From the NCBI GenBank assembly GCA_004321915.1, contig SCQE01000041.1:101191-165190 (forward strand): a DNA stretch of 64,000 bases, written 5' to 3'. The position numbers and the translations under genes are program-made. The notes under the pieces were generated by a model, which searched no databases, had not been told where the DNA came from, and worked only from the letters and a program-made list of their open reading frames with translations. Positions 5,530 through 36,164 of the stretch are shown in pieces. Position 1 is the stretch's first letter; each line of letters opens with the position of its first letter. Origin of the DNA: Nitrospirota bacterium (GTDB taxonomy: Bacteria; Nitrospirota; Thermodesulfovibrionia; Thermodesulfovibrionales; Dissulfurispiraceae).

Positions 5530-7659
5530 TCACCTGCCTACAGTATTCATTAATGTTGTAAACGCTTCATCCGCCACAGATATCACCTTAGCGGCCGCCT
5601 GAAAGGCCTTTTGGTACTTTACAAGATTGATCGCTTCCTCATCGAGATTTACCCCTGAAGTTTCCTGTCTCCTTTTTTCCAACTGCTCTACAAGGGTCTT
5701 GTAAAAACCGGCATTTACCTTTGCGGAATTGGCCTCCACACCGCTGTCATCCACTATTGTGCGATAAAATGTGAACGTATTGTTTCCTGAAAAAATATTC
5801 GTATCTTCCGCAAGCCCTGCTATCAGGCCTGCATTCATGTTGTCCCCGGCCTTGCCTGAAGACGATAAAATAGGATAAACGGCAAAATCGCTGGTGTCCG
5901 TGCCGGCCACGGCGATAGGGGTATAGTTTGTTGTGTTGAACCCCATGACCCCTGCCGCAGTAGATATTGTGCTCGTCCAGTCCAGCAGTATGGGCTTTGC
6001 ATTGCCTGCATCGTTCGTAATTGTATACTTCTTGGTCGCCGCGCTGTATGCCACCGTGTATGTGCCGGCTGTGGTCGTATCAGCCCCCTCGAGGGCGGTT
6101 TTTACGGCCGCTGAAAGCTGATATCTTGTGTACGTCCCGGCAGCGATCTTTGCGGTCTTAAAGGCAGGCGAAGCCGCAGTCGTGTCTTCAGTAAAACGAA
6201 TAGTATCGTTGGATGAATCTATAATTATCGTATCGCCGGCTGCCGCTGCAACCAGTTTAGGGTCATTCAATTTAACAGCCATACTCATTGCAGCATTGCG
6301 GTTCTGTTTAAGCGTAAATGTCCCGGTTCCTGCAGCAGCAAGGCTCCCTGCGCCTGCTTGGGCACCGTCGATCCTGACTTTTATGCCGTTAAACGAAAGC
6401 GTCCTGTAATTAGGGCTTTCATTGTTATCGTACGCCAGAGTCACGCTTCCGACAGGAACATCGGCAATGGCATCCCATGATTGGGTTGTGCTGTTCCATG
6501 TGGTCTCTCTCACCCTCCAGAAGATACCCGAGGCGCCTTCCTGCTGATAACCCGCCCCTGCTGCGTTGCTGTAATCTATCGTGTATTGAGTGTCCTTATC
6601 GGTTGCAAAGGCATTTACATCCGTAACGTTGAATCTTGTAATCTGGCCTGTGGCCGGATTGGTTATGTCCGCAAGCGCGCCGTTCACGCTAAAAAAATCA
6701 TTGCCGGTAGAACCGTCAAGGGCATAGCCCTGTCTATGGTAATAATTGATATAATCCGATACATTTATCGCAAAAGCGTTCAGCCTGTTCTGTCTGTTAA
6801 TAATTACCGAATCCCTTAGATCGAGATTTGACTTCAACTGTCCGCCGGTTATGTCATTTGTTATCTCCCTAGCGGGTTCGGTTGAAGAAAGTGTCACCTT
6901 AAAATGCATCATTCCGACATTGTCAGACGAAACGCTCATATTGTAAGAACGCGCGCCGTCGACCAGAGCAACGCCTCCGACAAGCACCGTGTATCTGTGG
7001 TTATTGTCCTCGAAAGTATTCACCTTTACGGTCTCGTTAAGTTTCTCTATCAGACTGTCTCTCTGGTCCTGCAGATCATAGAGGCCGGGCGCGATAGATA
7101 TTTTTTCGTTCAATGAGGATATCTCGGATGTGAGCTTGTTGATCTCCGAAACAAGCACATTACTGTTCTTCAGTATCTCGGTGCGTTCATCATCAAGGGC
7201 CGTACCTGCCTGAGCTATTCTCGATGACAGATACTCGCCCCTATTAATCGTTAAAGCCCTGCCGGCGTAACCGACAGGATTTTTATAAAGTTCGTTCCAT
7301 GAGTTAAAAAAATCATTTATGCTCTGTCCGATACTGTTGTCGTCGGCCTCGTTAAACAAGCTCTCTACGTTCGATATCCCTGTTTCATAGTCTTCCCAGT
7401 ACGCAAGATTAGCTTTTTCTGTCCTGATCTGGAGAGAGGTAAAGGAATCATACATCCGGCTGATTTCAGATACCCTTACGCCCCTGCCCGAAACCCCGGC
7501 CATTGCGCTGAACCCCGCCGATATGCTCTCTAAAACCACCGATTGCCTCGAATATCCGGGCGTTGCCGCATTAGCGACATTGTGGGCCGCAACATCGAGC
7601 GCCCTTCTGCTCGTAATTAACGCCGACCTGCCGATATCGAATAACCCGCCTATAGACAT
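5530..7659 (-). CDS. flgK: flagellar hook-associated protein 1
   Basis: N-terminus MSIGGLFDIGRSALITSRRALDVAAHNVANAATPGYSRQ and C-terminus EEAINLVKYQKAFQAAAKVI. The central region is long and variable. Confidence 0.9.
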   Translation of the reverse strand: MSIGGLFDIGRSALITSRRALDVAAHNVANAATPGYSRQSVVLESISAGFSAMAGVSGRGVRVSEISRMYDSFTSLQIRTEKANLAYWEDYETGISNVESLFNEADDNSIGQSINDFFNSWNELYKNPVGYAGRALTINRGEYLSSRIAQAGTALDDERTEILKNSNVLVSEINKLTSEISSLNEKISIAPGLYDLQDQRDSLIEKLNETVKVNTFEDNNHRYTVLVGGVALVDGARSYNMSVSSDNVGMMHFKVTLSSTEPAREITNDITGGQLKSNLDLRDSVIINRQNRLNAFAINVSDYINYYHRQGYALDGSTGNDFFSVNGALADITNPATGQITRFNVTDVNAFATDKDTQYTIDYSNAAGAGYQQEGASGIFWRVRETTWNSTTQSWDAIADVPVGSVTLAYDNNESPNYRTLSFNGIKVRIDGAQAGAGSLAAAGTGTFTLKQNRNAAMSMAVKLNDPKLVAAAAGDTIIIDSSNDTIRFTEDTTAASPAFKTAKIAAGTYTRYQLSAAVKTALEGADTTTAGTYTVAYSAATKKYTITNDAGNAKPILLDWTSTISTAAGVMGFNTTNYTPIAVAGTDTSDFAVYPILSSSGKAGDNMNAGLIAGLAEDTNIFSGNNTFTFYRTIVDDSGVEANSAKVNAGFYKTLVEQLEKRRQETSGVNLDEEAINLVKYQKAFQAAAKVISVADEAFTTLMNTVGR

Positions 7660-13418: not shown

Positions 13419-14261
13419 TTACGCTTCGACTTGAGATTTCTGTTCCAGATAGGTCGTTTTGACTTTTTCGGAAATTTCACCGAACTTTTCTTGGCTTAAT
13501 CCTAAGCGTTCAAGCTCTATATTGGTCAGTTCCGTGGATGAGCGCAACCCGATATTAAGGTTCAGGCATAAAGCGTCGGCTATTTTCACTATGAGACACT
13601 GGACCTCAAAGTCGTTGTCGCCCAACATAGCAAAATCTTCAGAATGATGGTATTCGATGACGGCTTCAAGGTTCTTCGGCAGCTTCCATTTTCGGGCAAC
13701 CAGCCCCCCGACATTGCAATGGTTAAAGCCGAGCATATCGTTCTCTGCCTCTAAAAAAGAAATGCCCTCGTCATACACCCTCTCTATGACCAACGAATAC
13801 GAATCCGGCATGCTGTTGTTCAGTATGGTCTTGCCGATGTCGTGAATAAGCCCCACAACGAGCGCTTCTTCCGCTGACATCAATCTTGTTTCAGCCGCGA
13901 GCGCCGAGGCCGCGATAGACACGCCCAAACTGTGGTCCCATAGACGCTGCTCGAACAACCCGAATTTACGGTGTATGTCCTTAAGGGATGCGGCAACAAC
14001 AAGGTTTTTCATCGTGTTCAAGCCGATCAATATTATAGCGGTCGAAACAGAGTCCACTTTTTTCCCTCTTCCGTAATAGGGAGAGTTGGCTATCTTAAGC
14101 AGCCGCGTTGAAAAAGACTGGTCTTGCGAGATGATCTTTTCTAGTTGGTTGATGGACGAAAAATCATCGTTCATCAGTTGCAGGACTTTGCTCGCAACTG
14201 TAGGAAGACTTGGGATATCGATAGTTTCGAGGACTATCTTTTCTAAAAGCTCTTCGTTCAA
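13419..14261 (-). CDS. HDOD domain protein
   Basis: IPSLPTVASKVLQLMNDDFSSINQLEKIISQDQSFSTRLLKIANSPYYG and a later HDIGK motif. Confidence 0.8.
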   Translation of the reverse strand: MNEELLEKIVLETIDIPSLPTVASKVLQLMNDDFSSINQLEKIISQDQSFSTRLLKIANSPYYGRGKKVDSVSTAIILIGLNTMKNLVVAASLKDIHRKFGLFEQRLWDHSLGVSIAASALAAETRLMSAEEALVVGLIHDIGKTILNNSMPDSYSLVIERVYDEGISFLEAENDMLGFNHCNVGGLVARKWKLPKNLEAVIEYHHSEDFAMLGDNDFEVQCLIVKIADALCLNLNIGLRSSTELTNIELERLGLSQEKFGEISEKVKTTYLEQKSQVEA

Positions 14262-14284: not shown

Positions 14285-14752
14285 TTATTCAAGCAGGGCC
14301 ACAGAATCGGATTTACCGAGCATCCTGTCTAGATCAAGAAGTATTATAAGCCTGTCTTCGAGCTTGGCTATGCCCCTCATAAACTCGGTGCTTATATTCG
14401 AGGCCATGGGAGGTGTCGGTTCCACGATGTTCCCCGGGATCCTGAGCACCTCCGACACAGAATCAACAACAACCCCCATAGTAATGCCTTCTATGTCCAT
14501 AATCATGATCCGCGAACGGGAATCCGGCTCTTTCGCAGCAAGATTGAACTTCGTCCTTATATTGATCACAGGAATGACTTTGCCTCGAAGATTCACAACA
14601 CCCTCGACATAGGCCGGAGAGTTGGGCACCCTCGTAATTTCGGTCATTCTGTTTATTTCCTGAACTTTAAGTATGTCAACCGCATATTCCTCGTTGTCCA
14701 GATTAAAAGTAACAAGTTGTAAAAGCTCTTCGGCTGAAGTCAGCGCCTTCAT
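14285..14752 (-). CDS. cheW: chemotaxis coupling protein CheW
   Basis: 155 aa forming a single CheW domain (FNLDNEEYAVDILKVQEI...VVNLRGKVIPVINIR). Confidence 0.9.
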   Translation of the reverse strand: MKALTSAEELLQLVTFNLDNEEYAVDILKVQEINRMTEITRVPNSPAYVEGVVNLRGKVIPVINIRTKFNLAAKEPDSRSRIMIMDIEGITMGVVVDSVSEVLRIPGNIVEPTPPMASNISTEFMRGIAKLEDRLIILLDLDRMLGKSDSVALLE

Positions 14753-15843: not shown

Positions 15844-18657
15844 TCAATATGCTTTATGTTCTTTCTTTATCTCTTCGAGATGATCTACGATCTGTTTGGA
15901 CAGGGTCAACATCTCCCTGTAAAATCCGTCAGCTTTGACCTTATCGCCGGACTTATAAGTCTCGGCCATCTGTCTGGCCAAGGCATGAAACCGCTCATGA
16001 GGAGGGTCTATCGATACAAAACTCGGGAGATTGCCGCATAAACGTTTTCCCTCAGTATCGTACCATTTGCCGAAGCGGCATGCGTGGTGGTCAGGAAGGC
16101 TGTTAAGATCCATATCGGCTTCCCCTCTCAAAAACGCCCCGACTTTTCCTACAAACAGCCTGTGGTCGGCTTTGGCCAAATCCAGCATAAGCAGCTCATT
16201 GCCGCCCACCTTGAATTTGATTGTAAGCACCCTCAGTTCTTCTGTCACCTTTATCAGACCGCTTACGTCATGCATGACCTTGACCGCCGTTTCCTTCTGG
16301 TCCGTTGCAATTCCGGCAGTCTTTTCCACATTCTTCGAGACCTCTTCGGCCGTCATCGTCTGATCTTCCATCGCAGTCGCTATCCTTGCTATCTGGTCTC
16401 CGACATTTTCTACGGAACTGACAATATTCAAAAGAGAATCGCCGACCTCTTTTATCTGTCCTGTGATCATATTGACTTGGTCCGAAGCGGTCTTCATCGA
16501 TTTGTTCGTCTGTCCGGCCTCGGTCTGCACCGCCCCTATTTTCTCGGATATTTCCCCTGTGGCCGCGATAGTCCTTTCGGCAAGTTTCCTTACTTCATCC
16601 GCAACTACGGCAAAACCCCTGCCCTGCTCCCCTGCCCTCGCAGCCTCTATCGCAGCGTTCAGGGCAAGAAGATTGGTCTGATCGGCAATGTCTTTTATTA
16701 CGGTCACTATCTCGCCGATCTCGCTTACCCGGCTATTCAGTTTGGTCATCATGGAAGAAAGTTCGAGTGTAGACTTGTGTACGGTCTCCACTGTCCTGAC
16801 AGCATTATCAGCCACCTGCTGCCCGGCATTGGCCACCTGCTTTGCATCGGAAGACGACCCGGCAGCGGAAGAGGCTGTCTTTGCTATATCGCCGAAGGTC
16901 TGGCTCATCTCCTCGGCCGCCGTAGCGATCTGATGGGCCTGTCCGGCCTGCTCCTGCGCGCCGTCCGAACTCTTCTGCGCCTCCTGTCTCAAACCGTCCA
17001 GCACCTGCACGGTTTCATTTACCGACGTCAATATCTTGCTTATGACATCGCTGAAAGACTGCATCATCTTCTGCATGCTCTGGGAAAGCTTTCCGATCTC
17101 GTCCTCGGATTGAGTTTCGAGTTTGCAGGCCAGATTGCCCGAGGCTATCTCATCCGCAACTTTTATGATAGCTTCGAGCGGTTTGTCTATAGAACGGTAT
17201 ATCCATACTCCAAAACCTATGCTCAACACTATGGCCGCTATGCTTATGGCGATAGTGAGTCCAAGGCTGAACCTTATCATACTGTTCACTGTGCCTATGG
17301 CCTTTTCCTGCTCTCCTTTTGCCGTGCTCACGGACTCTTTGCTCTTCTCCGCCTGCTTCAACACGATCTCGCGCAGTTTCGCCGTTGCCTCGGCCGCCTT
17401 TTCTTTCATTGTCAGGTCATGTTTGATCTTTTCCACAACCCCGTCTTTAGCAAACAAAAGGCTTTTTATAGAATTCAATGAAACCATAATCGCCTGAAGC
17501 GTTTTCAGCTCTTCCTTTGTGTCCAGTTGTTTCATCCCTTTATCGAGAAGTTTCTGCACATTTTCCGCACGTTCAAAGGATTTCTTCAAATCAACAACCA
17601 AAGGCTCGACCTCTTTGGGGCTGTTGACCGAAAAAAGCCTTGTAGACAAACCTTCTATAGAAAGACCTAACGCAAGCAGTTCCGAATTGCTCACAAGGAC
17701 ATTATTGGCAACGTTCGTCTGGCCGAATACATTTGTCTGTCGGCTCGATTCCGATGAATACTTTTCACTTGCATTGCCTGCTTCCTGTTCGACCGAAAGG
17801 CTCAGGACCGAAACCCGTTCCCCGATGTCCCTTTTCAGGTTTTCATACTGGTTCTTAAGGTCCTCAGTCTGCTGGGAAAGAAGGGCCATTTGGAGCTTTG
17901 TAATCTCCTCGATTTTCTCGCCTACGGACTTTAACTGCTTTGAATACTCTTTCTGCGTCTGGACATAATCTATCTGCTGTCCCTTTGATAAGGTAGCATT
18001 GGCCTTGCTCCTGCCGATTATAAGGCTCTTTTTATCTGAGGCTTTTTGCAGTTCGACAAAGACAAGCTGGAGATCTTTGATGATAAGTTTTAAAGACTCA
18101 AGGTCCTTAAGCTTGGTAGTGATATTCTTCGTATCTTCCATGGAAGATACTAGGGCGCCCTGCCTGTTCAACTGCAAGGACTTGATCTTGGCATCGAGCT
18201 CTTTAAGTTTTTGCGAAGACTCCTTCATCTTCTGCGTAATGGCCTTATTGGCAATATGCGCCTCTTCTTCTGCCTTTATCTTGTTTTCGCTGATATTAAA
18301 AATCTCGGCGCCGATCTTATGCAATTCCTCACTTACACCTATATTGGCCCCGCCCGTAAGCGCATCGAGAGAACTCTGCGTATTTTTGACCTCGTCGAGC
18401 GATTTTTCGGCCTCTGTCCTCAGGTTCTTGTAGTCGTTTACATTGTCCGCCAGCACAACCTTAATGAGGTCCGAAGTCGCTCCCTGAATAGCACGCTGAA
18501 ACTCCACCGTCCTCAACTGGAAAGGAGTGCTCCTCTCTGTGAGGTATGAAAGCTTGTTCTTCACAAAGTTCATCCCGACAACGCTTGTGCCCGCGACCGC
18601 ACAGAGTATGGCCAGAACCAGAACCAGATTCAGTGTAAGCTTTCTTTTTATAGTCAT
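15844..18657 (-). CDS. methyl-accepting chemotaxis protein with a roughly 430-aa periplasmic helical sensor, HAMP, a signalling domain and a C-terminal CZB zinc-binding domain
   Basis: Two TM segments at about residues 8-30 and 460-487. Highly conserved hairpin [38 protein letters not shown]. The C-terminus carries [10 protein letters not shown]...[11 protein letters not shown]...HERFHAL, the 3His/1Cys CZB pattern. Confidence 0.85.
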
Positions 18658-18730: not shown

Positions 18731-19486
18731 TTACTTAATATACTTCGGGCCTTCCGTCTTAATAAAATCAAGAAGTTTTTGCACATTGGCCGAAGGCGCC
18801 CCCTTGGTCACAAGTATGAGAGGTCTTCCGACTTCTGGCGTCTCAGGGACCTTGATCTTATCGTCGGACATAATGATCGGACCAAAGCCTATGCCCTCAG
18901 GCGTATCTATGATCTGCTTTTTAACATCATCGGCCGTATTTACTTCAAGAACATCCTTTGTAGCCGCCTCGCCGTCAAGGATATTTTTTGTAAACAGACT
19001 GTTCGTGCCTGTTGAGAGTTTTCCCCATACGACTATGATCGGGGTGTCTTTGCCTCCCACATCCTTCCAGTTTACCACCTTGCCCGTAAATATGCCTTTA
19101 AGCTGGTCTTTGCTGAGTTTGGCTATGCCGTTCGATTTATTAAGAAACACGATCATCTTGTCTTTAGCTATGACAACGTGCTTGTAAGCCGACGGGTCGC
19201 CTGCGTTCATATTCTCTTTTTTAGCTATATTCATAAGCCCTTCGAAATCCACGTCCGCGGTGGACGCATCTACAGAGCCTTTCAGAAGCTCGGCAAATGC
19301 ATGCTTGGAGCCGACCTTAAGAAAATTGATCTTTAATCCGGTGGCCTTCTCAAACGGCTCCTTGATAGGTTTGATAACAGTGGATTCGACGGTCCCCCCG
19401 CCTGCCAGCTTTAGCTCGGAAGCCGTGGCAGAAGAGGCCCAAACCAATAGACATATCAGTACGAAAACCTTTACGAAACTTTTCAT
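18731..19486 (-). CDS. periplasmic substrate-binding protein, PstS/PBP_like_2 family (orphan, no transporter partner nearby)
   Basis: Signal peptide, and LSKDQLKGIFTGKVVNWKDVGGKDTPIIVVWGK typical of the phosphate-binding-protein family. Confidence 0.7.
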   Translation of the reverse strand: MKSFVKVFVLICLLVWASSATASELKLAGGGTVESTVIKPIKEPFEKATGLKINFLKVGSKHAFAELLKGSVDASTADVDFEGLMNIAKKENMNAGDPSAYKHVVIAKDKMIVFLNKSNGIAKLSKDQLKGIFTGKVVNWKDVGGKDTPIIVVWGKLSTGTNSLFTKNILDGEAATKDVLEVNTADDVKKQIIDTPEGIGFGPIIMSDDKIKVPETPEVGRPLILVTKGAPSANVQKLLDFIKTEGPKYIK

Positions 19487-19504
19487 GCTCTTTCCCCCTT
19501 TAAG

Positions 19505-20257
19505 CTACTTTTTGATATATTGGGCGCCGGCGCCCTTCATAAAATCTATCAGTTTCTTCACGTTTGCGGACGGCTCGCCTTTGGTGACTATAATAATAGG
19601 ACTTAACAACGCCGGAGTTTCCGGGACCCTGACGGATTGGTCGGCAAGCCCTATGGGGTCTATGCCTATGGCCTCAGGAGTGGTTGATACGCTCTCTTTT
19701 ATGCTTGCATAATCCGTGACGTCAAACACCTCTTTGATGACCTTCTCCCCATCGAGGATCTCCTTTACAAACTGGGCGTTCTGTCCCGGCGTTGCCTTTC
19801 CCCACACAACTATAATGGCCCCGTCCTTTCCGCCGACCTCCTTCCAGTTGTTGATCTTTCCTGTAAATATGCCCTTAAGCTGGTCCTTGGAAAGTTTGGG
19901 AACCATATTGCTTTTATGAAGCAGTATCGCGGTCCTGTTCTGCGCCACTTCAGTTTTTTTAAAATCTGCGGCATTGACCTTCACTCCGTCTTTCTCGGCC
20001 CCGCCTATCATGCTTTCAATAGAAACAGCGGCAACGGCAGCATCGACCTTTCCATTCGCAAGCTCAATAAAACCGTGTTTAGGAGTGCTCTGAAACAGCG
20101 ACAAATTAATTCCCGACGCCTTTTCAAAATGAGGCTGCACCGGTCTGAAAGCGGTATTCATGGCCGCCCCGCCCCCGCCGATCCTGATCTCTTCGGCAAA
20201 AGCGTTTAAAGAAACAAGCATAAAAACAACCGTAGCGACACACAACAGTCTTCTCAT
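19505..20257 (-). CDS. periplasmic substrate-binding protein, PstS/PBP_like_2 family (tandem paralogue)
   Basis: Collinear with the neighbouring gene. Shared blocks are KLSKDQLKGIFTGK, IIVVWGK, ILDGE, VPETP and VTKGxPSANVxKLxDF. Confidence 0.7.
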   Translation of the reverse strand: MRRLLCVATVVFMLVSLNAFAEEIRIGGGGAAMNTAFRPVQPHFEKASGINLSLFQSTPKHGFIELANGKVDAAVAAVSIESMIGGAEKDGVKVNAADFKKTEVAQNRTAILLHKSNMVPKLSKDQLKGIFTGKINNWKEVGGKDGAIIVVWGKATPGQNAQFVKEILDGEKVIKEVFDVTDYASIKESVSTTPEAIGIDPIGLADQSVRVPETPALLSPIIIVTKGEPSANVKKLIDFMKGAGAQYIKK

Positions 20258-20283: not shown

Positions 20284-21480
20284 TTAAAAACCGAAATCTT
20301 TAAGCAGATCATCGACGCCTTCCTGAGAGACCTGCTCGGCCTTAACGGCTTCCGCCTTTACCCCTGCGTCAACCTTCACTCCGAACGTGGTTATCAACTT
20401 CACAAGCTCATCCTCTATCTCGCTGACAAGCGTTATGACTTTTTTTATGGTTTGCCCTGTCAGGTCCTGAAATGATTGTGTGGTCAATATTTCGGTAAAG
20501 TCATCTTCGAGCTTATTTTTAAAATCTTTTATGTAGACAACCGATTCCTCGGGCCCGGTAAGGTTTCTGATATGTGAGGCAAGGTCATCCATCACGAGGA
20601 TATTGTTCTCTACTATCCCCATAGTCTTATTGGCAGCCTCTTCGGTCTTCTCTATAACATATTTAAGCCTGTCAACGGCATTAGGCATCTCTGAGGAAGC
20701 CATGTCCTTAAGCCTCGGATCGAGGGCTTCTTTGAAGCTCCTGATGGAATCGTGAAGCTTCCTCGTGACCTTGCCGACCTCTTTGAAGAGATCGCTCTGT
20801 CCTTTGTTCATTATATTCTGGATGGCTTCATCCGCCTTATCGTAATCCTGTCCGGTGACTGAATTCATAAAAGAAACCATTTCATCGAACAGAGCATAAC
20901 GAGGGTCATCGACCGCTATGCCCTTCTTTTCGAAAAATTCTTTTGCATCGTGAATTTCACGAACGACCATCTCTCCGCCCATGCCTTCTATCTTCTTGAC
21001 AACCTCCACCTTGTCGCCGATCTGCTCTCCGACCTCGTATATCTGGTCCTCAAAAAGACTTGCGTCCTCGACAGGTATAAGTTTTTTTGTGTCGAGCAGG
21101 ACAATAAGCCTGTCGTCAACCTTTGCTACGCCCTCGACCTGCGCAATGTGGGTCTGCATAAAATTCTCGGCAGGTTCTATTGCATTCTGTTCTATGGTCA
21201 CCACGCCGGTTATGCCGTCAACCAGCACACCGAAAGTCATCCTGCCGCTCGTAACCACTATGACCTTCTCCGTCGTAATCTCGGATATCTCTCCGAAAAG
21301 GCCTACAAGTTTTTTGAGGTTGACCACGGGTATTATACGGCCCCTCAGATTTGTGACACCCTCGATATAATCCGGCGACTGGGGAAGTTTCGTTATGGAA
21401 GGCAGATTTATTATTTCCTGCACCTTCAAGATCGGAATCGTGTATTCATTGCCCGACATGGTAAACCCTATATACTGCAT
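20284..21480 (-). CDS. CheW-domain / CheZ phosphatase fusion protein
   Basis: Residues 1-150 form a CheW domain (EYTIPILKVQEI...VTNLRGRIIPVVNLKK). The C-terminal half has DRLKYVIEKTEEAANKTMGIVE, the CheZ active-site block SFQDLTGQTIKKV and the CheY-binding tail SQEGVDDLLKDFGF. Confidence 0.8.
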   Translation of the reverse strand: MQYIGFTMSGNEYTIPILKVQEIINLPSITKLPQSPDYIEGVTNLRGRIIPVVNLKKLVGLFGEISEITTEKVIVVTSGRMTFGVLVDGITGVVTIEQNAIEPAENFMQTHIAQVEGVAKVDDRLIVLLDTKKLIPVEDASLFEDQIYEVGEQIGDKVEVVKKIEGMGGEMVVREIHDAKEFFEKKGIAVDDPRYALFDEMVSFMNSVTGQDYDKADEAIQNIMNKGQSDLFKEVGKVTRKLHDSIRSFKEALDPRLKDMASSEMPNAVDRLKYVIEKTEEAANKTMGIVENNILVMDDLASHIRNLTGPEESVVYIKDFKNKLEDDFTEILTTQSFQDLTGQTIKKVITLVSEIEDELVKLITTFGVKVDAGVKAEAVKAEQVSQEGVDDLLKDFGF

Positions 21481-21502
21481 ATATCCTCCCGGTGTTCCTT
21501 TA

Positions 21503-23311
21503 TTATTTATTTACGGTGGCGAATATGGTGCGGGAAATCACAGCAAGGTCGAGTATCAAAACAACGCGGCCGTCTCCTGTTATTGTGGCCCCTAATATTC
21601 CGCACTCTTCGGACTCTATCCCGTTTATCATCTTGATCACTATTTCTTCCTGACCTAGAAGTTCGTCGACCGACATACAGAACCGTCTGTCGCCTACAAG
21701 CGCAACGAGCAGATACCTGTTTTCCGTGTCCAACATCTGCCTGTTACGCACACCCAGAATTTCCGACATATCGAAAAGAGGTATCACCCTGCCTCTTATA
21801 GTCAGGACCTTCTGTTTGGTCACATCCTTTATATCGCTCTTTTTGACCCTGAGCGTCTCCTCGATCATAGACTGAGGAATAGCGTAATATTCTTCACCGA
21901 TACGCACCATCATAGCTTGCAGTATCGCCAAGGTAAGAGGCAGGCTTATGCGGAAGGTCGACCCTACATCTTTCTTTGTCATGACCTCGCAATAGCCGTT
22001 CAGTTTGGCCACGTTGGTTTTAACGACATCCATTCCCACGCCGCGTCCGCTGAGTTCTGTGGAGACCTCTTTGGTCGAGAAACCCGGGAGGAATATCAGA
22101 TTAATGGCCGAATCGTCCGACATTTTCAAGGCCTCGTCCTCGGTTATCAGTCCGTTTTTAATGGCCTTACGTTTAACGGCGTCAACGTCTATCCCCTTCC
22201 CGTCATCCGCCACCTCTATGATAATCTGAGTGCCTTTCTGTTCGGCGCTGAGTATGATCCTGCCCTTTCTTGGTTTGCCTTTTTTCTCCCTTTCGTCGCT
22301 GAACTCTATCGCATGGTCTATCGAATTTCTTATGATGTGGACCAAGGGATCGCCTATATTCTCTATGACCGTCTTGTCAACTTCGGTCTCTTCGCCGAAC
22401 ATCTCAAGATCTATGTCTTTGCCTAGGGTGCGGGACATGTCCCTGACCATTCTGGGAAACTTGCCGAACACTTTTTGAATGGGCTGCATCCTCATCTTCA
22501 TTACGGCAAGCTGGAGATCGGAGGTCACTCTGTCCAAAAATGCTGTGGTCTCCAGCATGCTTTCCACGTTTCTGTCGCCTGAATAACTTGCATCAAGCTT
22601 GGCCGCAAGGTTCAGTAATCTGTTTCTCGCAAGAACGATTTCGCCCGCAAGATCCATGACCTTATCTATCCTAGATACATCGACCCTGAGGTTTGCCACC
22701 ACTTCCTTTTCTTTGGATATTTGCTGGACCGTCTCCTCGGCAGGAGCAGGAGCAGCCGGTCTTTTTTCTTCTTTGGGTTCAGTTTTGCTTTCGGTCACGG
22801 CAGAAAACTGGACCGGTTCCGCCTCCTGTTTTGCCTGTTCGGGCTTCTGCTCTTCCGCTGCAGAAGAAGTAACGGGTGCGGCCTGCGTTTCAGCCGCAGC
22901 GGCAGGCGCGCTGCCTGCAGACACCGCAGTATCCAGCGCGAGATCGAGTCTGCCGGTTATGCCTGAAATGTCCTCCTCAACCCCATCCTTGATCTTGACA
23001 TGATGGATCAAAGACCTGAGGACATCGACACTCTGGAAAACAACATCCATCAACTCACGCGAAAGGGCTATTTCGCCTTCACGAAGTTTCTTCATGATAC
23101 TCTCGGACCTGTGGGCCACATCGACAATCTGCTGAAAGCCTAGAAAACCGGCAGCGCCCTTAAGAGTATGCATGCCCCTGAATATTTCGTTAAGTATGTC
23201 CTTGTCGTGCCCCCTCGTTTCGAGCTCGACGAACATGGGGTCTATCTTTTCTATCGTCTCTTCGGCTTCGGTGACAAATTCGGATATTATTTCATCCATT
23301 TCATCAGCCAT
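21503..23311 (-). CDS. cheA: chemotaxis histidine kinase CheA (no recognisable P2 domain)
   Basis: Hpt motif FRGMHTLKGAAGFLG, an Ala/Pro/Glu-rich linker, a dimerisation domain, HATPase (DDGKGID, GRGVGMDVV) and a C-terminal CheW-like domain. Confidence 0.9.
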   Translation of the reverse strand: MADEMDEIISEFVTEAEETIEKIDPMFVELETRGHDKDILNEIFRGMHTLKGAAGFLGFQQIVDVAHRSESIMKKLREGEIALSRELMDVVFQSVDVLRSLIHHVKIKDGVEEDISGITGRLDLALDTAVSAGSAPAAAAETQAAPVTSSAAEEQKPEQAKQEAEPVQFSAVTESKTEPKEEKRPAAPAPAEETVQQISKEKEVVANLRVDVSRIDKVMDLAGEIVLARNRLLNLAAKLDASYSGDRNVESMLETTAFLDRVTSDLQLAVMKMRMQPIQKVFGKFPRMVRDMSRTLGKDIDLEMFGEETEVDKTVIENIGDPLVHIIRNSIDHAIEFSDEREKKGKPRKGRIILSAEQKGTQIIIEVADDGKGIDVDAVKRKAIKNGLITEDEALKMSDDSAINLIFLPGFSTKEVSTELSGRGVGMDVVKTNVAKLNGYCEVMTKKDVGSTFRISLPLTLAILQAMMVRIGEEYYAIPQSMIEETLRVKKSDIKDVTKQKVLTIRGRVIPLFDMSEILGVRNRQMLDTENRYLLVALVGDRRFCMSVDELLGQEEIVIKMINGIESEECGILGATITGDGRVVLILDLAVISRTIFATVNK

Positions 23312-23312
23312 C

Positions 23313-23729
23313 TTAGCCCCCTGCCTTCAAAGATTTCTTTTTGTCCGCGATCTTGTCCAGTTTCTCTTTAAGGACTTCCGCTGTAAACGGCTTGACTATA
23401 TAGTTGTCGACTCCGGCCTTAATGGCTTCTATTACTTTTTCTTTTTCGGCTTCGGCAGTGACCATAAGCACCGGTATATCCTTTATTTTATCGTTAGGCT
23501 CTTTTCTAAGGTTTCTAAGCAGGTCTATGCCTTCCATTACAGGCATGTTCCAGTCGGTCACAAGAAGGCCAAAACCACCAGCCCGCAGCTTATCCAAGGC
23601 CTGCTGTCCGTTTTCAGCCTCTTCGATATTTTCGAATCCTATCTGCTTCAGAAGGTTCTTGACTATCCTTCTCATAGTCGGGAAGTCGTCAACCACAAGC
23701 ACTTTAAGGGTCACATTCAAATTAGACAT
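23313..23729 (-). CDS. cheY: chemotaxis response regulator CheY
   Basis: [18 protein letters not shown]...[13 protein letters not shown]...NYIVKPF. The ATG at 23729 is preferred over the GTG at 23744 because it follows an AGGTGGAGG ribosome-binding site. Confidence 0.85.
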
Positions 23730-24114
23730 CAGCTGCACCTCCACCTTTGAACATTTTTTTAAGTATCTTTTTTATCCCGTCAGTTATCTGTTCAGCATTG
23801 GTAGGCTTTACGAGATAATCGTCTACACCTGCCTCAAACGCTTTCTTCTTCTCGTCCTCATCGGCCTCGGTGGTGACCATGATAATCGGCATGCCCGACA
23901 AAGCAGGGTCTTTTCTTACGGTTTTCGTAAGTTCAATCCCGTCCATGTACGGCATGTTCATATCCGATACTATAAGGTTTATGCCTTCCGTGCCTATTTT
24001 TTCCAAGGCCTCCAACCCGTTCTCGGCAGTCACAATCTCGTAGCCCTTGCCTTTAAGGTAAAGAGACAGCAGTTTTCTTGTAGTCTTGTCGTCATCAACG
24101 ATCAGTATTTTCAT
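23722..24114 (-). CDS. single-domain CheY-like response regulator
   Basis: [16 protein letters not shown]...[13 protein letters not shown]...DYLVKP. Confidence 0.8.
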
Positions 24115-24142: not shown

Positions 24143-24973
24143 TCATACTTTTTGATAAACGATTACCTTGTTGATAATTACCGGCCTGAAAGCCCTTGTA
24201 ATATTATGCAGACTCTCGGAAGTGCCGACAAAAAGATAACCGTTAGGTCTCAACGCGTCATACATCAAAGAAACAGCCTTTTGTTTGGCCTTCTCATCAA
24301 AATATATCAGGACGTTCCGGCAGAAGATGACATCAACGCCCCTTACGGCCCTGACGTCCTTGTCATCCATAAGATTTATCTTCATGTACTTGACCATCGA
24401 TTTGACGGATGAAGAAAGCTGGTACTGCTGATTCGTAACGCTGAAATATTTCTTCATATAGAGCTCCGATATATTCCTGACCGCATACGAACCGTATGAT
24501 GCGGCCTTTGCCGAAGCCAGCACGGATTCGCTGATATCGGAAGCATATATCTCGGTCCTGAGGGCTTTTGCCTCGGGTTTTTCGAGAAGGAGCATGGCTA
24601 TTGTATAAGGCTCCTCCCCTGTGGAGGAAGCGGCGCACCATATCTTGATGTCCCTGCGTCCGCCCTTTGCGTTCTCAGCGGTTATGCGGTTAAAGAGTTC
24701 TCCGGTAAAAACATCGAACTGCTGCGGCTCCCTGAAAAAAAATGTTTCATTTGTAGTGACCAGATCGAAAAGCTTGACCATCTCGTTTTTGTCAGCCCCG
24801 AATTTGACCACATAAAGATAATCCTCATACCCTTTAAGGCTTTTCTCCTGCACCCTTCTGCCGAGCCTGTTTTCAAGAAAATATTTCTTATTATCGGGGA
24901 TGAATATCCCGCTCTTTTCGTATATGAAATCACGGATCTGCTTAAAAATGTCTTCGGTCATGACAAGGTTCAT
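24143..24973 (-). CDS. cheR: chemotaxis protein methyltransferase
   Basis: CheR N-terminal helical domain followed by the SAM-binding fold (IWCAASSTGEEPYTIAMLL, IFCRNVLIYFD). Confidence 0.9.
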   Translation of the reverse strand: MNLVMTEDIFKQIRDFIYEKSGIFIPDNKKYFLENRLGRRVQEKSLKGYEDYLYVVKFGADKNEMVKLFDLVTTNETFFFREPQQFDVFTGELFNRITAENAKGGRRDIKIWCAASSTGEEPYTIAMLLLEKPEAKALRTEIYASDISESVLASAKAASYGSYAVRNISELYMKKYFSVTNQQYQLSSSVKSMVKYMKINLMDDKDVRAVRGVDVIFCRNVLIYFDEKAKQKAVSLMYDALRPNGYLFVGTSESLHNITRAFRPVIINKVIVYQKV

Positions 24974-26865
24974 ATCGCGTCCAGCGCCTCCCTTATCTTC
25001 TCTCTGACATCGGGATTGTGATGCTCCTCATAGACGCTCAAAACCTCATAAGCCTCTCTGCCGCCGATGTTCGAAATCGCGTCTATAGCGGACATGACAA
25101 CCGGAATAAATTCATCTTTAAGCATGTCCTTTATCAATTCCAGCGACCTTTCTCTGTCGCAAGAAAAACCGACACTCTTTATCGTATAAAACCTCACCCA
25201 TGGGTCCGAGTCGTGAAGAGCGTTTATCAACTCCTGTGAACAGTAACCCGCCTCACCCAGACCGACAACAGCGGCCCTTCTGATATCGGCATCGCTGTCC
25301 GAAAGAAATGACGAAAGTTTTAGCAGCGCCTCCGCAGTGCCGACCTTGCCCATGCTGTGTATTGCCGAGCTTTTTACGTTTTTTGCGTCGTCTTCGGAAA
25401 GCTTGAACAGCACTCCCAGATCCATGACTGTGTCAGCTATTATCTCCTTGACTACCACATTGTACCCGTCTATGCCGGCAAGAAAAGATCCGGGGTCTAT
25501 GTTTAAAAGGGCCTTTACTATTCTTTCAAGCACATCCCGGTACCGCTCAACTTCCATAAGTTCAAGCAAAGGCTTTACCGCAGCCTTCGACTTTATATTG
25601 CCTAGGGCATCTATAGCGGTGCGCCTGACATGAGCATCGACATCCTGATAAGAAGCGTCCAAGAGACCTTTAATAGCATCCGGGGCAGGGTCCTTAATTT
25701 CCCCTAGCGCCTCTGCGGACGCCCTTCTAAGGTCTCTGCGCATGTCGTTAAGATAATTCAACAACCTTGAAACCGCCTTTTTGCTCCCCGCCTCTCCTAA
25801 TATTTCTATCGCAAAAGACTTCCCGCGATATCTGAGATCCTGCGAGTCGAGAAGTTTGATCAGTTCGTCTTCGGAATCGATAGACATAAGGGTGTTCTTG
25901 ACGTCAAACAGTCTTTCTTCATTGCCGGGCATCGAAGGATCGAGAGAGCCCGCTATATCTACGAGAAGGGGCACCGCCCCCGTACATTTGAGATCAACTA
26001 TACCTTTCAGCGCCACTTCCCTGTCATCCCAGTCGCCCTCTTTGAGCATAGGGAGCAGATGACAGGATATTTCGGACATATCGGGCGTTACTCCGATCTG
26101 TATCAGGCTCTTTATAACAGCATTCTTTTCGTCATCCGACGCCTTTGCTAGATATCCCCTCAAAAAATCACTGCCTTTCGAGGAACCTATCTGTCCTAAC
26201 GTTTCTATCGCAACGAACCTTACAGCCTCGGAGCCTTTTTCTAAAAGGGCAGCAATACTTTCGACCGATTCCTCCGCTTTCAAGAGACCGAGAGACTCCA
26301 GCGCAGAAAAACAGACCCATTCTTCATCGTCAAGCGCTTCTACAAGATAAGGCAAAGCCTCCATATATCCGAGCAGTCCTACCGCTTTTGCCGCAGCCGA
26401 ACGCGCATTGGCATTCGGGTCCTTAAAACTCGGTAAAAGTCTGGACGCATCTACACCGGTAATTATCTCCCCCAAAAGATCGATAGCGAATTTTCTTACA
26501 TCTTCGTCTTTATCTTTAAGCAGGGCATAAAGCAGCGGCACAGAGATTTCACCTAAATCCCTGAGTATGATCAAGGCGGTGTTTCTAAGCAGGGTATTCT
26601 CTCTAAGCAGCGGAAGCACCATATAGGCAGTAACTTCGCCGCCTATAGCCATGAGTGACCTCATAGCCGCGTCTTGGACCCCTGCATTGTCGTCATTGAG
26701 GCATTTAATCAGAGGATAAACGGCCCTTTCATCGGTTTCAGAGAGGTCCTCGACAGCCGCCCTTCTTACCGAGGCATCATTGTTTGACAGCTTTTGAATC
26801 AGTTTCTTGATATTCTTAGCCATCTTTCGTCCCTTCATTAATCGAAATTTACCAAAATTCATCAA
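24970..26865 (-). CDS. HEAT-repeat (PBS-lyase-type) protein, first gene of the che operon
   Basis: Repeated units of about 30 aa of the type DxxVRxxAxxALGxIG along the whole length. ATGA overlap with the cheR start. The real start may be the MAKNIKK ATG at 26823. Confidence 0.75.
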   Translation of the reverse strand: MMNFGKFRLMKGRKMAKNIKKLIQKLSNNDASVRRAAVEDLSETDERAVYPLIKCLNDDNAGVQDAAMRSLMAIGGEVTAYMVLPLLRENTLLRNTALIILRDLGEISVPLLYALLKDKDEDVRKFAIDLLGEIITGVDASRLLPSFKDPNANARSAAAKAVGLLGYMEALPYLVEALDDEEWVCFSALESLGLLKAEESVESIAALLEKGSEAVRFVAIETLGQIGSSKGSDFLRGYLAKASDDEKNAVIKSLIQIGVTPDMSEISCHLLPMLKEGDWDDREVALKGIVDLKCTGAVPLLVDIAGSLDPSMPGNEERLFDVKNTLMSIDSEDELIKLLDSQDLRYRGKSFAIEILGEAGSKKAVSRLLNYLNDMRRDLRRASAEALGEIKDPAPDAIKGLLDASYQDVDAHVRRTAIDALGNIKSKAAVKPLLELMEVERYRDVLERIVKALLNIDPGSFLAGIDGYNVVVKEIIADTVMDLGVLFKLSEDDAKNVKSSAIHSMGKVGTAEALLKLSSFLSDSDADIRRAAVVGLGEAGYCSQELINALHDSDPWVRFYTIKSVGFSCDRERSLELIKDMLKDEFIPVVMSAIDAISNIGGREAYEVLSVYEEHHNPDVREKIREALDAI

Positions 26866-33782: not shown

Positions 33783-34822
33783 CTAAAACTCCCTATCAAA
33801 GAACCTATGATAAGCTCCCACCCGTCAGCCAATACAAACAAAAGAAGTTTCACGGGCAATGAGACCATAACAGGCGGGAGCATCATCATACCCATAGCAA
33901 GCAAAATACTGCCGACAACCATGTCAATAACGAGAAAAGGCAAATAGATAAGAAATCCTATCTCAAAAGCTTTCTGAAGTTCTCCGATAGCAAAAGCAGG
34001 GACAACAACCTTCATTGGTAAATCCATGGGGCTTGCAGGCCTTTCGCTCTTTGAAATCTTTAAGAAAAGCGCCAGATCCTTTTCCTTGGTCTGTCTAAGC
34101 ATAAATTCTTTTAGAGGCACACTCGCCTTGTTCAACGCAGTTTCAGCATCAATCTGTTTTTTAGTATATGGTAGATAAGCCTCTGAATATACACGGTCAA
34201 ATACTGGCGACATTATAAAAAAAGTGATGAAAAGCGCCAATCCTATCAAAACTGTATTAGGGGGGGCTTGAGGCGTGCCCATAGCCTGTTTTAGAAAGGA
34301 CAAAACAACTATTATTCTTGTAAAACATGTACACATAACCAACATTGCAGGCAAAATTGACAACAAAGTAAAAAAAAGTAATATCTCAAGCGGTGAATTA
34401 AGTCCGAGTATCCCCCCACCTACAGCAGGCGGTGCAGGTGCGCAAAAAGCGGTTTCGGAAAATAAAAGACCGCATAAAAACCAAAATGAAGAAAATATAA
34501 GTTTTCCTTTGTTTTTAAACAAATCTTTTATACTAAAACTCTGTACATTATTTTCTGTCATTACATTTAGTGATGCTTCTGCAACTTTGGGATTTAACTT
34601 ATCTATCAAGGAAACATTTTGATCGCCTATACCCAAAACAAAATACTCATCCAGAACTTTAACTATTCCTATGCCTCGTTTTGTTCCCAAGGGATAAAAA
34701 TATATTAAATCTATAAAACCTTTTTGTGGCATTACCCTTTGTTTTATCAGACGTAAGAACATATATAATCCGGCAAGTATAATTATCAGAACAAGCAGAA
34801 TTTTCAACACCTCAAAAGCCAA
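33779..34822 (-). CDS. fliP: FliO-like N-terminal module fused in frame to FliP
   Basis: Residues 1-85 have a TM segment plus LIYFYPLGTKRGIGIVKVLDEYFVLGIGDQNVSLIDKL (FliO pattern). A second hydrophobic, signal-like segment follows (FWFLCGLLFSETAFCA), then the FliP core (TRIIVVLSFLKQAMGTPQAPPN). Confidence 0.8.
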   Translation of the reverse strand: MAFEVLKILLVLIIILAGLYMFLRLIKQRVMPQKGFIDLIYFYPLGTKRGIGIVKVLDEYFVLGIGDQNVSLIDKLNPKVAEASLNVMTENNVQSFSIKDLFKNKGKLIFSSFWFLCGLLFSETAFCAPAPPAVGGGILGLNSPLEILLFFTLLSILPAMLVMCTCFTRIIVVLSFLKQAMGTPQAPPNTVLIGLALFITFFIMSPVFDRVYSEAYLPYTKKQIDAETALNKASVPLKEFMLRQTKEKDLALFLKISKSERPASPMDLPMKVVVPAFAIGELQKAFEIGFLIYLPFLVIDMVVGSILLAMGMMMLPPVMVSLPVKLLLFVLADGWELIIGSLIGSFR

Positions 34823-34849
34823 GTTTATTCCTCCGTTATGCTTAATATG

Positions 34850-35179
34850 CTACTTTAACGATCTCACCCTTTCTGTGGGGCTGATTATATCCGTTACCCT
34901 TATACCGAACTTTTCATTTACAACAACAACTTCGCCTCTTCCGACAAGTCTGTCATTTACATATACCTCCATCGGTTCGCCGGCAAGTTTCTCAAGCGCT
35001 ATTACCGACCCCTGCCCCAATTGCAATAGTTCCTGAATAAGTATCTTTGTCCTTCCTATCACAACTGTAAGTTCAAGCGGTACATCAAGAATAAAATTAA
35101 CATCTCTTTGTTGTACCCTCTGCATTTGGTCTTCCGAGCCAAACTCCTCCATGTTTAAATCCTTAACATCTTCTGACAT
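34850..35179 (-). CDS. fliN: flagellar motor switch protein
   Basis: 109 aa with a SpoA-type C-terminus (LDVPLELTVVIGRTKILIQELLQLGQGSVIALEKLAGEP). Confidence 0.9.
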   Translation of the reverse strand: MSEDVKDLNMEEFGSEDQMQRVQQRDVNFILDVPLELTVVIGRTKILIQELLQLGQGSVIALEKLAGEPMEVYVNDRLVGRGEVVVVNEKFGIRVTDIISPTERVRSLK

Positions 35180-35201
35180 TTTGCCTCCTAACCAATTGTT
35201 T

Positions 35202-36164
35202 CTAAATGATTTGAGTTATTTTTAATGCGTATGATCCCTTAAAAATACCAAATTTCCCCTGAAACTTAGGTACACCTTCTATATCTATATCTATATCTTC
35301 ATCTACCCTTTTATTGAGCATTATGATATCCGAGGTCTGCATGTTTAAAATATCTTCAACCGAAACCACGGCACTACCAAGAGTTGCGGTAAAATTCAAA
35401 GGGATCTCTTTTAATCTTTCACGTAATCGTTCAATCCATTTCTGGTCCATCTCATCCCTGTCGGCAGAAAAAGCGCTATAAAGTTTCTCTTTAATCGGTT
35501 CAACCGTTCCATAAGGGATACATAAAAATATCCTGCACTGTTTGCCTTCGATTTCAAGGATAAATTCAACTTTAATAACAACGTCTACAGGCGTTACTAT
35601 TGTTACAAACTGAGGATTCATTTCAGATCTTACATAGTTAGGCATAACAGGATAAATAGGTTTCCAAGCCTCTTCCATGTCACTAAAAAACATCATTACA
35701 ACTTTATGTATGATTTTTTGTTCAATTGGTGTAAATTCACGGCCCTCAGGCTTATAATGTCCCTTTCCAGTACCACCGAAGAAAAATTCGATAAGCGTAA
35801 AAATCATCGGGGCATCAAAAACCAAAAGCCCGAATCCCCTTAAAGGTTCCATCTTGAACACATTGATACTTGAGGGAAAAGGTATTCCCCTCATAAAATC
35901 GTAAAATTTAGTTATATTTACATTAACATTCGTAACATCAACCATATGCCTTATTGCAGCGGAAAGCGATAGACGAAAATTTCTCGCAAGTCTCTCATTG
36001 GCAATATCAAGAGACGGCATTCTGCCACGAACAATCTTCTCCTGACCGCTAAAATCATAGAGTTTTACACCCGAAACTTCCTCTACTTTTTCGGTTTCTA
36101 CATCTCCGTCAGATATACCTTTAAGTAGCGCATCGACTTCATCCTGCGATAGGATATCTTCCAT
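35202..36164 (-). CDS. fliM: flagellar motor switch protein
   Basis: The N-terminal CheY-P binding motif LSQDEVDALL and the FliM middle domain. Confidence 0.9.
   Translation of the reverse strand: MEDILSQDEVDALLKGISDGDVETEKVEEVSGVKLYDFSGQEKIVRGRMPSLDIANERLARNFRLSLSAAIRHMVDVTNVNVNITKFYDFMRGIPFPSSINVFKMEPLRGFGLLVFDAPMIFTLIEFFFGGTGKGHYKPEGREFTPIEQKIIHKVVMMFFSDMEEAWKPIYPVMPNYVRSEMNPQFVTIVTPVDVVIKVEFILEIEGKQCRIFLCIPYGTVEPIKEKLYSAFSADRDEMDQKWIERLRERLKEIPLNFTATLGSAVVSVEDILNMQTSDIIMLNKRVDEDIDIDIEGVPKFQGKFGIFKGSYALKITQII

Follow-up and report, generated by a model that had tools for sequence, protein, structure and literature searches.

A CheW-CheZ fusion gene in the flagellar and chemotaxis operon of a Nitrospirota bacterium

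In bacterial chemotaxis, gradient sensitivity and response time are shaped by how the sink for phosphorylated CheY (CheY-P) is placed relative to its source. The Escherichia coli device for this is an internally initiated form of the kinase, CheA-short, that binds the tip of the CheZ hairpin, and most bacteria lack CheA-short. The hairpin tip (residues 70-133, with the DDWF motif at residues 95-98) brings E. coli CheZ to the receptor clusters through this contact (PMC7750401, citing Cantwell 2003), and when localisation is lost, as with the CheZ F98S substitution, chemotaxis responds less strongly (PMC7750401, citing Cantwell 2003 and Vaknin and Berg 2004). Here we describe a gene in a 64,000-nucleotide stretch of a Nitrospirota bacterium genome (GenBank assembly GCA_004321915.1, contig SCQE01000041.1, positions 101,191 to 165,190; hereafter the window), in which a CheW domain and a CheZ phosphatase are encoded in a single reading frame. 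The cheW::cheZ fusion gene is real, intact, conserved and syntenic, and the sequence determinants of both domains are all kept. To judge from these determinants its product is probably an active CheZ-type CheY-P phosphatase with a working N-terminal CheW domain, and it is most likely tethered to the chemosensory array or to the kinase. It departs only modestly from known wiring, as a covalent route to phosphatase localisation.

The CheZ of Azorhizobium caulinodans and the CheZ-HP/ChePep system of Helicobacter pylori contain no CheA-short motif, have a shorter hairpin and reach the pole otherwise, the Azorhizobium protein having a longer N-terminal helix (PMC7750401). Unlike the product described here, these are stand-alone CheZs that are localised by their own helices or by a partner protein and have no fused CheW. 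CheV resembles the fusion in having an N-terminal CheW-like domain joined to a C-terminal module with an effect on the flow of phosphoryl groups, and in being auxiliary to a canonical CheW, but its cargo is a phosphorylatable receiver whereas that of the fusion would be a phosphatase removing phosphoryl groups catalytically; CheV is best regarded as an analogy for the fusion and not as its family. A precedent for the covalent tethering of a CheY-P phosphatase to the chemotaxis machine is provided by Bacillus subtilis FliY, a CheC-type phosphatase fused to a FliN-like switch domain, but FliY has an unrelated fold (CheC/CheX), and its tether lies at the motor end where that of the fusion would lie at the receptor end.

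The CheW-CheZ architecture itself is already known, since databases list it and a single sentence of a paper mentions it, whereas what it does, how it is built and where it occurs are not on record; no experimental study of it was found. In that paper, by Vass, Bourret and Foster (bioRxiv 10.1101/2022.05.07.491035), it figures in a list of rare CheW-like domain architectures, each represented by fewer than 40 sequences and left out of the analysis, and no distribution, anatomy or function is reported for it. The exact phrase 'CheW-CheZ' gave no match in a literature text search, and homologues carry database names such as 'protein phosphatase CheZ' or 'chemotaxis signal transduction protein/... 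CheZ'.

Anatomy of the fusion gene

The fusion gene occupies positions 20284 to 21480 of the window and, like all of its component features given below, lies on the minus strand; the ORF (open reading frame) listing and translation show one frame from ATG to TGA, with 398 aa and a stop codon. A Shine-Dalgarno sequence, GGGAGG, is read from the sequence at 21485-21490, 4 nt 5' of the ATG at 21478-21480. The cheA stop codon and the start of the gene are 22 nt apart. Among related fusion genes a Shine-Dalgarno core of at least 5 nt precedes seven of the eight starts that are open to inspection. An initial annotation of the window had described one ORF joining a complete CheW-like domain to CheZ, and the Pfam CheW and CheZ domains are indeed both present above their cut-offs, complete and in one frame; the CheW domain is complete as described, but it ends at about residue 140 and not at residue 150.

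The CheW domain, residues 1-140 (21061-21480), is supported by Pfam, by phmmer against the PDB and by fold superposition. Residues 2-135 match Pfam CheW PF01584 over profile positions 1-134 of 138 (E 2e-34; 118.6 bits against a cut-off of 23.5), and CheW chains in the PDB are matched by phmmer with E values from 2.8e-23 to 6.8e-17. Residues 1-140 of an AlphaFold monomer model, for which the predicted local distance difference test (pLDDT) score is about 70-78, superpose on nine solved CheW chains with target-normalised template modelling (TM) scores of 0.64-0.80 (E 3e-11 to 2e-8). The NLRG motif (N44-L45-R46-G47) is invariant among 47 homologues, and R46 aligns with R62 of E. coli CheW, a residue that we take to be tied to receptor coupling. 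The fused domain shares 38 % identity with the stand-alone CheW encoded in the same operon (14285-14752, minus strand; Pfam CheW E 2.5e-39).

For the C-terminal half, with the annotated E. coli K-12 cheZ (b1881) as the reference for motifs, Pfam CheZ PF04344 matches in two stretches (E 6e-37; 127.9 bits against a cut-off of 30.7), the match being split because the hairpin is shortened, and BLASTP aligns E. coli CheZ residues 16-214 with fusion residues 230-398 (E 9e-17). The three CheZ elements named in the initial annotation are all recovered by alignment. The helix DRLKYVIEKTEEAANKTMGIVE aligns with its E. coli CheZ counterpart; the active-site block FQDLTGQ lies at 20452-20472, where translation and residue mapping place D339 and Q343 at the positions of E. 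coli D143 and Q147; and the C-terminal CheY-binding peptide QEGVDDLLKDFGF (residues 386-398; 20287-20325) aligns with E. coli QDQVDDLLDSLGF, VDDLLKDFGF standing against VDDLLDSLGF. D339, Q343, G397 and F398 are invariant among the 47 homologues. The fusion and E. coli CheZ (1KMI) belong to one enzyme family, with an alignment that takes in both catalytic residues, the helical hairpin and the C-terminal peptide, and the presumed outcome is the same, a phosphatase beside the kinase; the difference is that E. coli CheZ attaches through its DDWF tip to CheA-short whereas the fusion would attach covalently through CheW.

There are further differences from E. coli CheZ in the lengths of the parts. 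The CheZ N-helix and helical hairpin, which form the core of the bundle, span residues 230-366 (20383-20793; BLASTP against E. coli CheZ and predicted helices), and the model has predicted helices at residues 193-209, 213-227, 230-252, 255-264, 266-305 and 310-366. Residue mapping shows that the hairpin is without the equivalents of E. coli residues 94-104 (WDDWFADPIDL) on one arm and 121-130 on the other, so that the tip is deleted; the E. coli DDWF (95-98) falls within the missing 94-104 segment and has no counterpart in the fusion. An alpha helix rises 1.5 Å per residue, and the fusion CheZ bundle should be about 15 Å shorter than that of E. coli. The flexible linker before the C-terminal peptide, residues 367-385 (20326-20382; low pLDDT and low conservation), is 11 residues shorter than in E. 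coli, with E. coli residues 182-192 missing.

Between the CheW domain and the CheZ core are two regions of different character, an inter-domain linker at residues 141-179 (SLFEDQIYEVGEQIGDKVEVVKKIEGMGGEMVVREIHDA; 39 aa by translation; 20944-21060) and a helical segment at residues 180-229 (20794-20943), which lies outside the Pfam CheZ profile and is extra relative to E. coli CheZ. Three CheZ-only representatives of 221-240 aa (P0167, P0173 and P0200), of which at least P0173 is a credible full-length stand-alone CheZ, align with the fusion from residues 175-189 on; the CheZ unit therefore starts at about residue 180, leaving the 39-aa linker. The motif FM..IA.QD..KA is common to the fusion and all three of these proteins, and because of this motif and the shared alignment we regard residues 180-229 as a lineage-specific N-terminal extension of this CheZ and not as linker. 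The extension recalls the long N-terminal helix of Azorhizobium CheZ (PMC7750401). A separate known domain at residues 141-229 was considered and rejected, as no Pfam family matches at E <= 10, including in the linker 141-179, and the helical half belongs to the CheZ lineage.

Regional conservation was calculated as the mean majority-residue frequency over 77 fused proteins of 57-90 % identity. The best conserved parts are the active-site helix (0.90) and the C-terminal peptide (0.84), and the CheZ core 230-366 ranks first among the long regions (0.81), with the CheW domain at 0.70 and the flexible linker 367-385 at 0.56. Residues 155-178 of the inter-domain linker are ungapped in the 77 proteins and have a conservation of 0.61, against 0.62 in the N-terminal extension, a pattern that points to a structured connector of fixed length; beta strands, or a beta-hairpin, are predicted in the linker with low model confidence. 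We also considered an internal start that would release free CheZ, in the manner of CheA-long and CheA-short. The start Met of the CheZ-only protein P0167 aligns with M172, inside an EGMGGEM motif, and the fusion offers only a GGAG 2 nt before the ATG at M172. Among relatives just 41 of 80 have any Met there, and a 5-nt Shine-Dalgarno core at usable spacing accompanies 3 of these 41; the internal start is rejected.

Conservation and distribution in Nitrospirota

The initial annotation had cautioned that a frameshift could have merged two separate genes, and comparison with relatives argues against such an artefact. In a large protein collection there are 816 homologues at E <= 1e-5, and both Pfam domains are present in all of the best 120, for which domains were inspected (343-411 aa); the source names among these 120 are Nitrospirota, Thermodesulfovibrionales, Dissulfurispiraceae or just 'CheZ'. 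A relative is encoded in 207 species-representative genomes, and in the best 80 of these, whose loci were analysed with ORFs and phmmer, the query is covered end to end in nearly all, three being cut by contig ends. In 79 of the 80 loci a single frame runs without interruption through CheW and CheZ. The fused frame is also found in closed single-contig genomes, as open frames of 398-437 aa, and in 14 of 14 loci from seven families of the phylum (see below).

The exceptional locus, L073, has an in-frame TAG in the linker, reading ...KVEVVKKRQTMAGYIRLK*IHDAKEF... where its relatives have ...KVEVVKKIEGMGGEMVVKEV.DAK.F..., and within its positions 6440-6540 a garbled stretch of about 12 residues follows an A8 homopolymer, after which the frame resumes. 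This is probably a local indel pair or a pseudogene in one metagenome-assembled genome (MAG). L073 is what can be said for an artefactual or decaying gene, be it an assembly frameshift merger or a catalytically dead CheZ remnant. Such an explanation is extremely improbable in view of the single frame in the other loci and in the closed genomes, the invariant catalytic residues, a CheZ core that is the most conserved region, and the strong Shine-Dalgarno sequence at the start.

Of 401 Nitrospirota genomes searched with a CheZ profile, 221 contain CheZ; families are denoted here by anonymous f-codes. Frames of fusion size (about 395-525 aa) are present in 12 families of the window's class (f1, f3, f5-f11, f13, f14 and f16) and in f24 and f25 of other classes, and frames of stand-alone size (about 200-290 aa) in f26, f29 and f36 and, at 264 aa, in a single f30 genome; two further f30 frames, 347 and 391 aa from stop to stop, are longer yet contain no CheW. 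Twenty of these loci were inspected for CheW in the CheZ frame: all 14 loci from f5, f6, f8, f13, f14, f24 and f25 have CheW and CheZ in one frame, and all six from f26, f29, f30 and f36 have no CheW in the CheZ frame. Clustering of the homologues at 50 % leaves no more than about a dozen representatives in which the fusion extends along all or most of the protein, and below them come proteins with multiple CheW domains. Off-phylum labels on some fusion-bearing MAGs (Alphaproteobacteria; Smithellaceae, L085; Deltaproteobacteria, L088) are not taken at face value. We note that P0038 ('Alphaproteobacteria bacterium') and L026 (NSJL01000002.1, 'Nitrospira sp.'), each 72 % identical to the query and each with a contig of 273,981 bp, are probably the same contig.

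In a maximum-likelihood tree of the CheZ moieties there are two deep clades (100/99), one containing the main fused family and the other the divergent f24 fusions together with stand-alone Nitrospirota CheZs. The label of fused or stand-alone needs at least 5-6 changes on this tree, a count inflated by likely short-contig fragments and by the long E. coli branch, and long branches meet. More than one fusion or fission event is likely, if not established, and since both deep CheZ clades include fusions the CheW-CheZ junction may have been gained, or retained, on more than one occasion.

The D(D/E)WF tip responsible for CheA-short docking is absent from all Nitrospirota CheZs examined, fused or not. 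Measured from the column of E. coli residue 73 to that of residue 143, the hairpin segment is 71 residues long in E. coli, 67 in f14, 60-61 in f6, f8, f13 and f24, 59-60 in the stand-alone CheZs of f26 and f29, and 50 in both the window's subfamily and the stand-alone P0173, the last being 21 residues shorter than in E. coli. Deletion of the hairpin tip as a result of fusion was considered and rejected, since stand-alone Nitrospirota CheZs are also without DDWF and the stand-alone P0173 has the same 50-residue segment.

Proposed docking of the phosphatase and its alternatives

The absence of the DDWF tip means that the fusion CheZ needs another route to localise. Docking of the phosphatase at the array is the most economical reading, and it fits the phylum-wide absence of the CheA-short docking motif. 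In the scenario that we favour, the CheW domain would bind at CheA-P5 and/or at the chemoreceptor tips. A sub-stoichiometric phosphatase would thereby be placed at the polar array that serves the flagellar Che system, beside the kinase that makes CheY-P. The CheZ part would dimerise to form a shortened four-helix bundle, the C-terminal peptide would capture CheY-P, most likely that of the enteric-type CheY encoded just upstream of cheA, and Gln343 and Asp339 would be inserted into the CheY active site to give faster hydrolysis. We infer array binding, dimerisation and phosphatase activity on the adjacent CheY from the sequence.

The gene for this CheY lies at 23313-23744 (minus strand). Its product is 59 % identical to E. 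coli CheY and keeps the DWNMP, TAEA and YIVKPF blocks intact, whereas the product of a second cheY-like receiver gene (23722-24114, minus strand; Pfam Response_reg) is 42 % identical, and the former is therefore the likely natural substrate. The two cheY ORFs overlap by 23 nt (23722-23744); the downstream one is called from a GTG and may truly start further on, as it resembles E. coli CheY only from residue 13 onward.

Several points weigh against array docking of an active phosphatase. Stand-alone CheZs of the phylum are without DDWF too, so that loss of the motif is not tied to fusion, and CheZ has other ways to localise, the N-terminal helix in Azorhizobium being one (PMC7750401). The fusion scores 79 bits against a cut-off of 257 for the NCBIfam enteric CheZ equivalog (PRK11166), and 85.8 bits against 260 for the enteric CheW equivalog; with scores so far under both cut-offs, its halves are to be regarded as relatives of the E. 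coli proteins and not as equivalogs. The AlphaFold monomer has a mean pLDDT of 58, with values below 50 over residues 359-386, and is usable only for secondary structure and the CheW fold, a low overall confidence such as would be expected for an obligate dimer. A fold search with this low-confidence monomer model did not recover the CheZ bundle (1KMI).

It is unlikely, if conceivable, that the fusion is tethered to the kinase only, with a CheW domain that binds CheA P5 (or makes CheW-P5-type contacts), engages no receptor and is not a component of the lattice. The fusion gene does lie directly after cheA in every related locus in which the upstream flank is present, and E. coli likewise localises CheZ through CheA and not through receptors (PMC7750401). 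Canonical CheW copies also remain available for lattice building. Against this, the CheW domain is of full length and the equivalent of E. coli R62, the residue tied to receptor coupling, is invariant; the sequence does not separate CheA binding from receptor binding. The physiology would be similar to that of array docking, with the source and sink of CheY-P in one place and the phosphatase riding on CheA.

A different relationship to the array would hold if the fusion were the principal scaffold, that is, the main CheW of the flagellar Che system with a phosphatase at every CheW position of the lattice. A separate small cheW is present in only 13 of the 61 related loci whose downstream sequence extends for 5.5 kb or more, which would favour such a role, but a canonical cheW is encoded in the same operon here. 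This genome (3.63 Mb, 99.6 % complete) contains by profile search exactly one CheZ, the fusion, and 14 CheW domains, of which five are in CheA-sized frames, seven are in stand-alone CheW-sized frames of 155-210 aa (including the operon cheW), one is in a CheV and one is in the fusion. The CheV (322 aa; G000:C121:46740-47708, locus L102 441-1409, minus strand) has CheW and Response_reg domains; the C-terminal module of the fusion is CheZ and not Response_reg. Apart from the CheA-sized frames, this genome thus encodes CheW-domain adaptors of three kinds. All ten other fusion-bearing genomes surveyed (1-9 contigs, five of them single-contig) also keep a high-scoring stand-alone CheW of 162-200 aa. 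We therefore regard the fusion as an auxiliary adaptor with cargo rather than as a lattice builder, and the role of principal scaffold as very unlikely; the census of CheW in this genome and the ten others rules out the fusion as the only CheW of its system.

More speculatively, and in our view rather doubtfully, a CheZ dimer carrying two CheW domains might bridge lattice positions and couple phosphatase activity, or access to CheY-P, to the state of the receptors. The array would then control kinase and phosphatase reciprocally, like bifunctional histidine kinases, and the conserved linker 155-178 of fixed length and the fusions in both CheZ clades would reflect selection for coupling.

If the phosphatase is docked as favoured here, a covalent CheW-CheZ chimera conserved across much of one phylum would be a second, simpler solution to that of E. 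coli. It would extend the auxiliary CheW-domain adaptors, so far exemplified by CheV, with one that bears a phosphatase, and would serve as a natural probe of the importance of kinase and phosphatase co-localisation and of whether a CheW lattice position can carry cargo. Its practical value is limited, as the architecture is on record, the mechanism is the one that a specialist would expect, and genetic work in the hosts is difficult.

Operon context and neighbouring genes

The fusion gene belongs to a super-operon of flagellar and chemotaxis genes, every one of them on the minus strand, with the order flhB-flhA-flhF-flhG-fliA-HEAT-repeat protein-cheR-cheY-cheY-cheA-cheW::cheZ, followed by genes for two PstS-like binding proteins, a methyl-accepting chemotaxis protein (MCP; HAMP and CZB domains), cheB, cheW, an HDOD protein, flgF, flgG, flgA and flgH. 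The core order FliA-HEAT-CheR-CheY-CheY-CheA-W::Z is kept in essentially all related loci. Immediately upstream of the fusion, cheA (21503-23311) encodes by Pfam the Hpt, dimerisation, HATPase and CheW-like P5 domains and no P2. The initial annotation had noted the missing P2, and no Pfam P2 or CheY-binding family matches at E <= 10 in CheA residues 95-215, this stretch (about 100-207) being a linker rich in Ala, Pro, Glu and Lys. The further suggestion that CheY traffic might be organised differently here does not follow, since P2 is also absent from more than 50 % of CheAs and its absence is no special mark of this system.

Between the fusion and the MCP gene are two tandem genes for PstS-like periplasmic binding proteins (PBP_like_2; 18731-20257). 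There are no transporter genes beside this pair, and the pairing of binding proteins with an MCP 3' of the fusion occurs in a minority of related loci. The MCP (15844-18657) is 937 aa long and has a C-terminal CZB zinc-binding domain. The HDOD-domain protein is encoded at 13419-14261 and ends the che block in many relatives. A protein of 631 aa composed almost entirely of HEAT repeats is encoded between fliA and cheR (24970-26865), and this position is kept in nearly all of the 80 loci.

Just past the flagellar export genes the G+C content dips to 0.37 at 34001-36000, against about 0.47 elsewhere. The nearest named relative, L022 (PEAD01000028.1; 90 % identity), comes from 'Nitrospirae bacterium MYbin3', a name that occurs in a study of magnetotactic bacterial genomes (PMC5955933), and the organism from which the window derives may be a magnetotactic member of the Nitrospirota.

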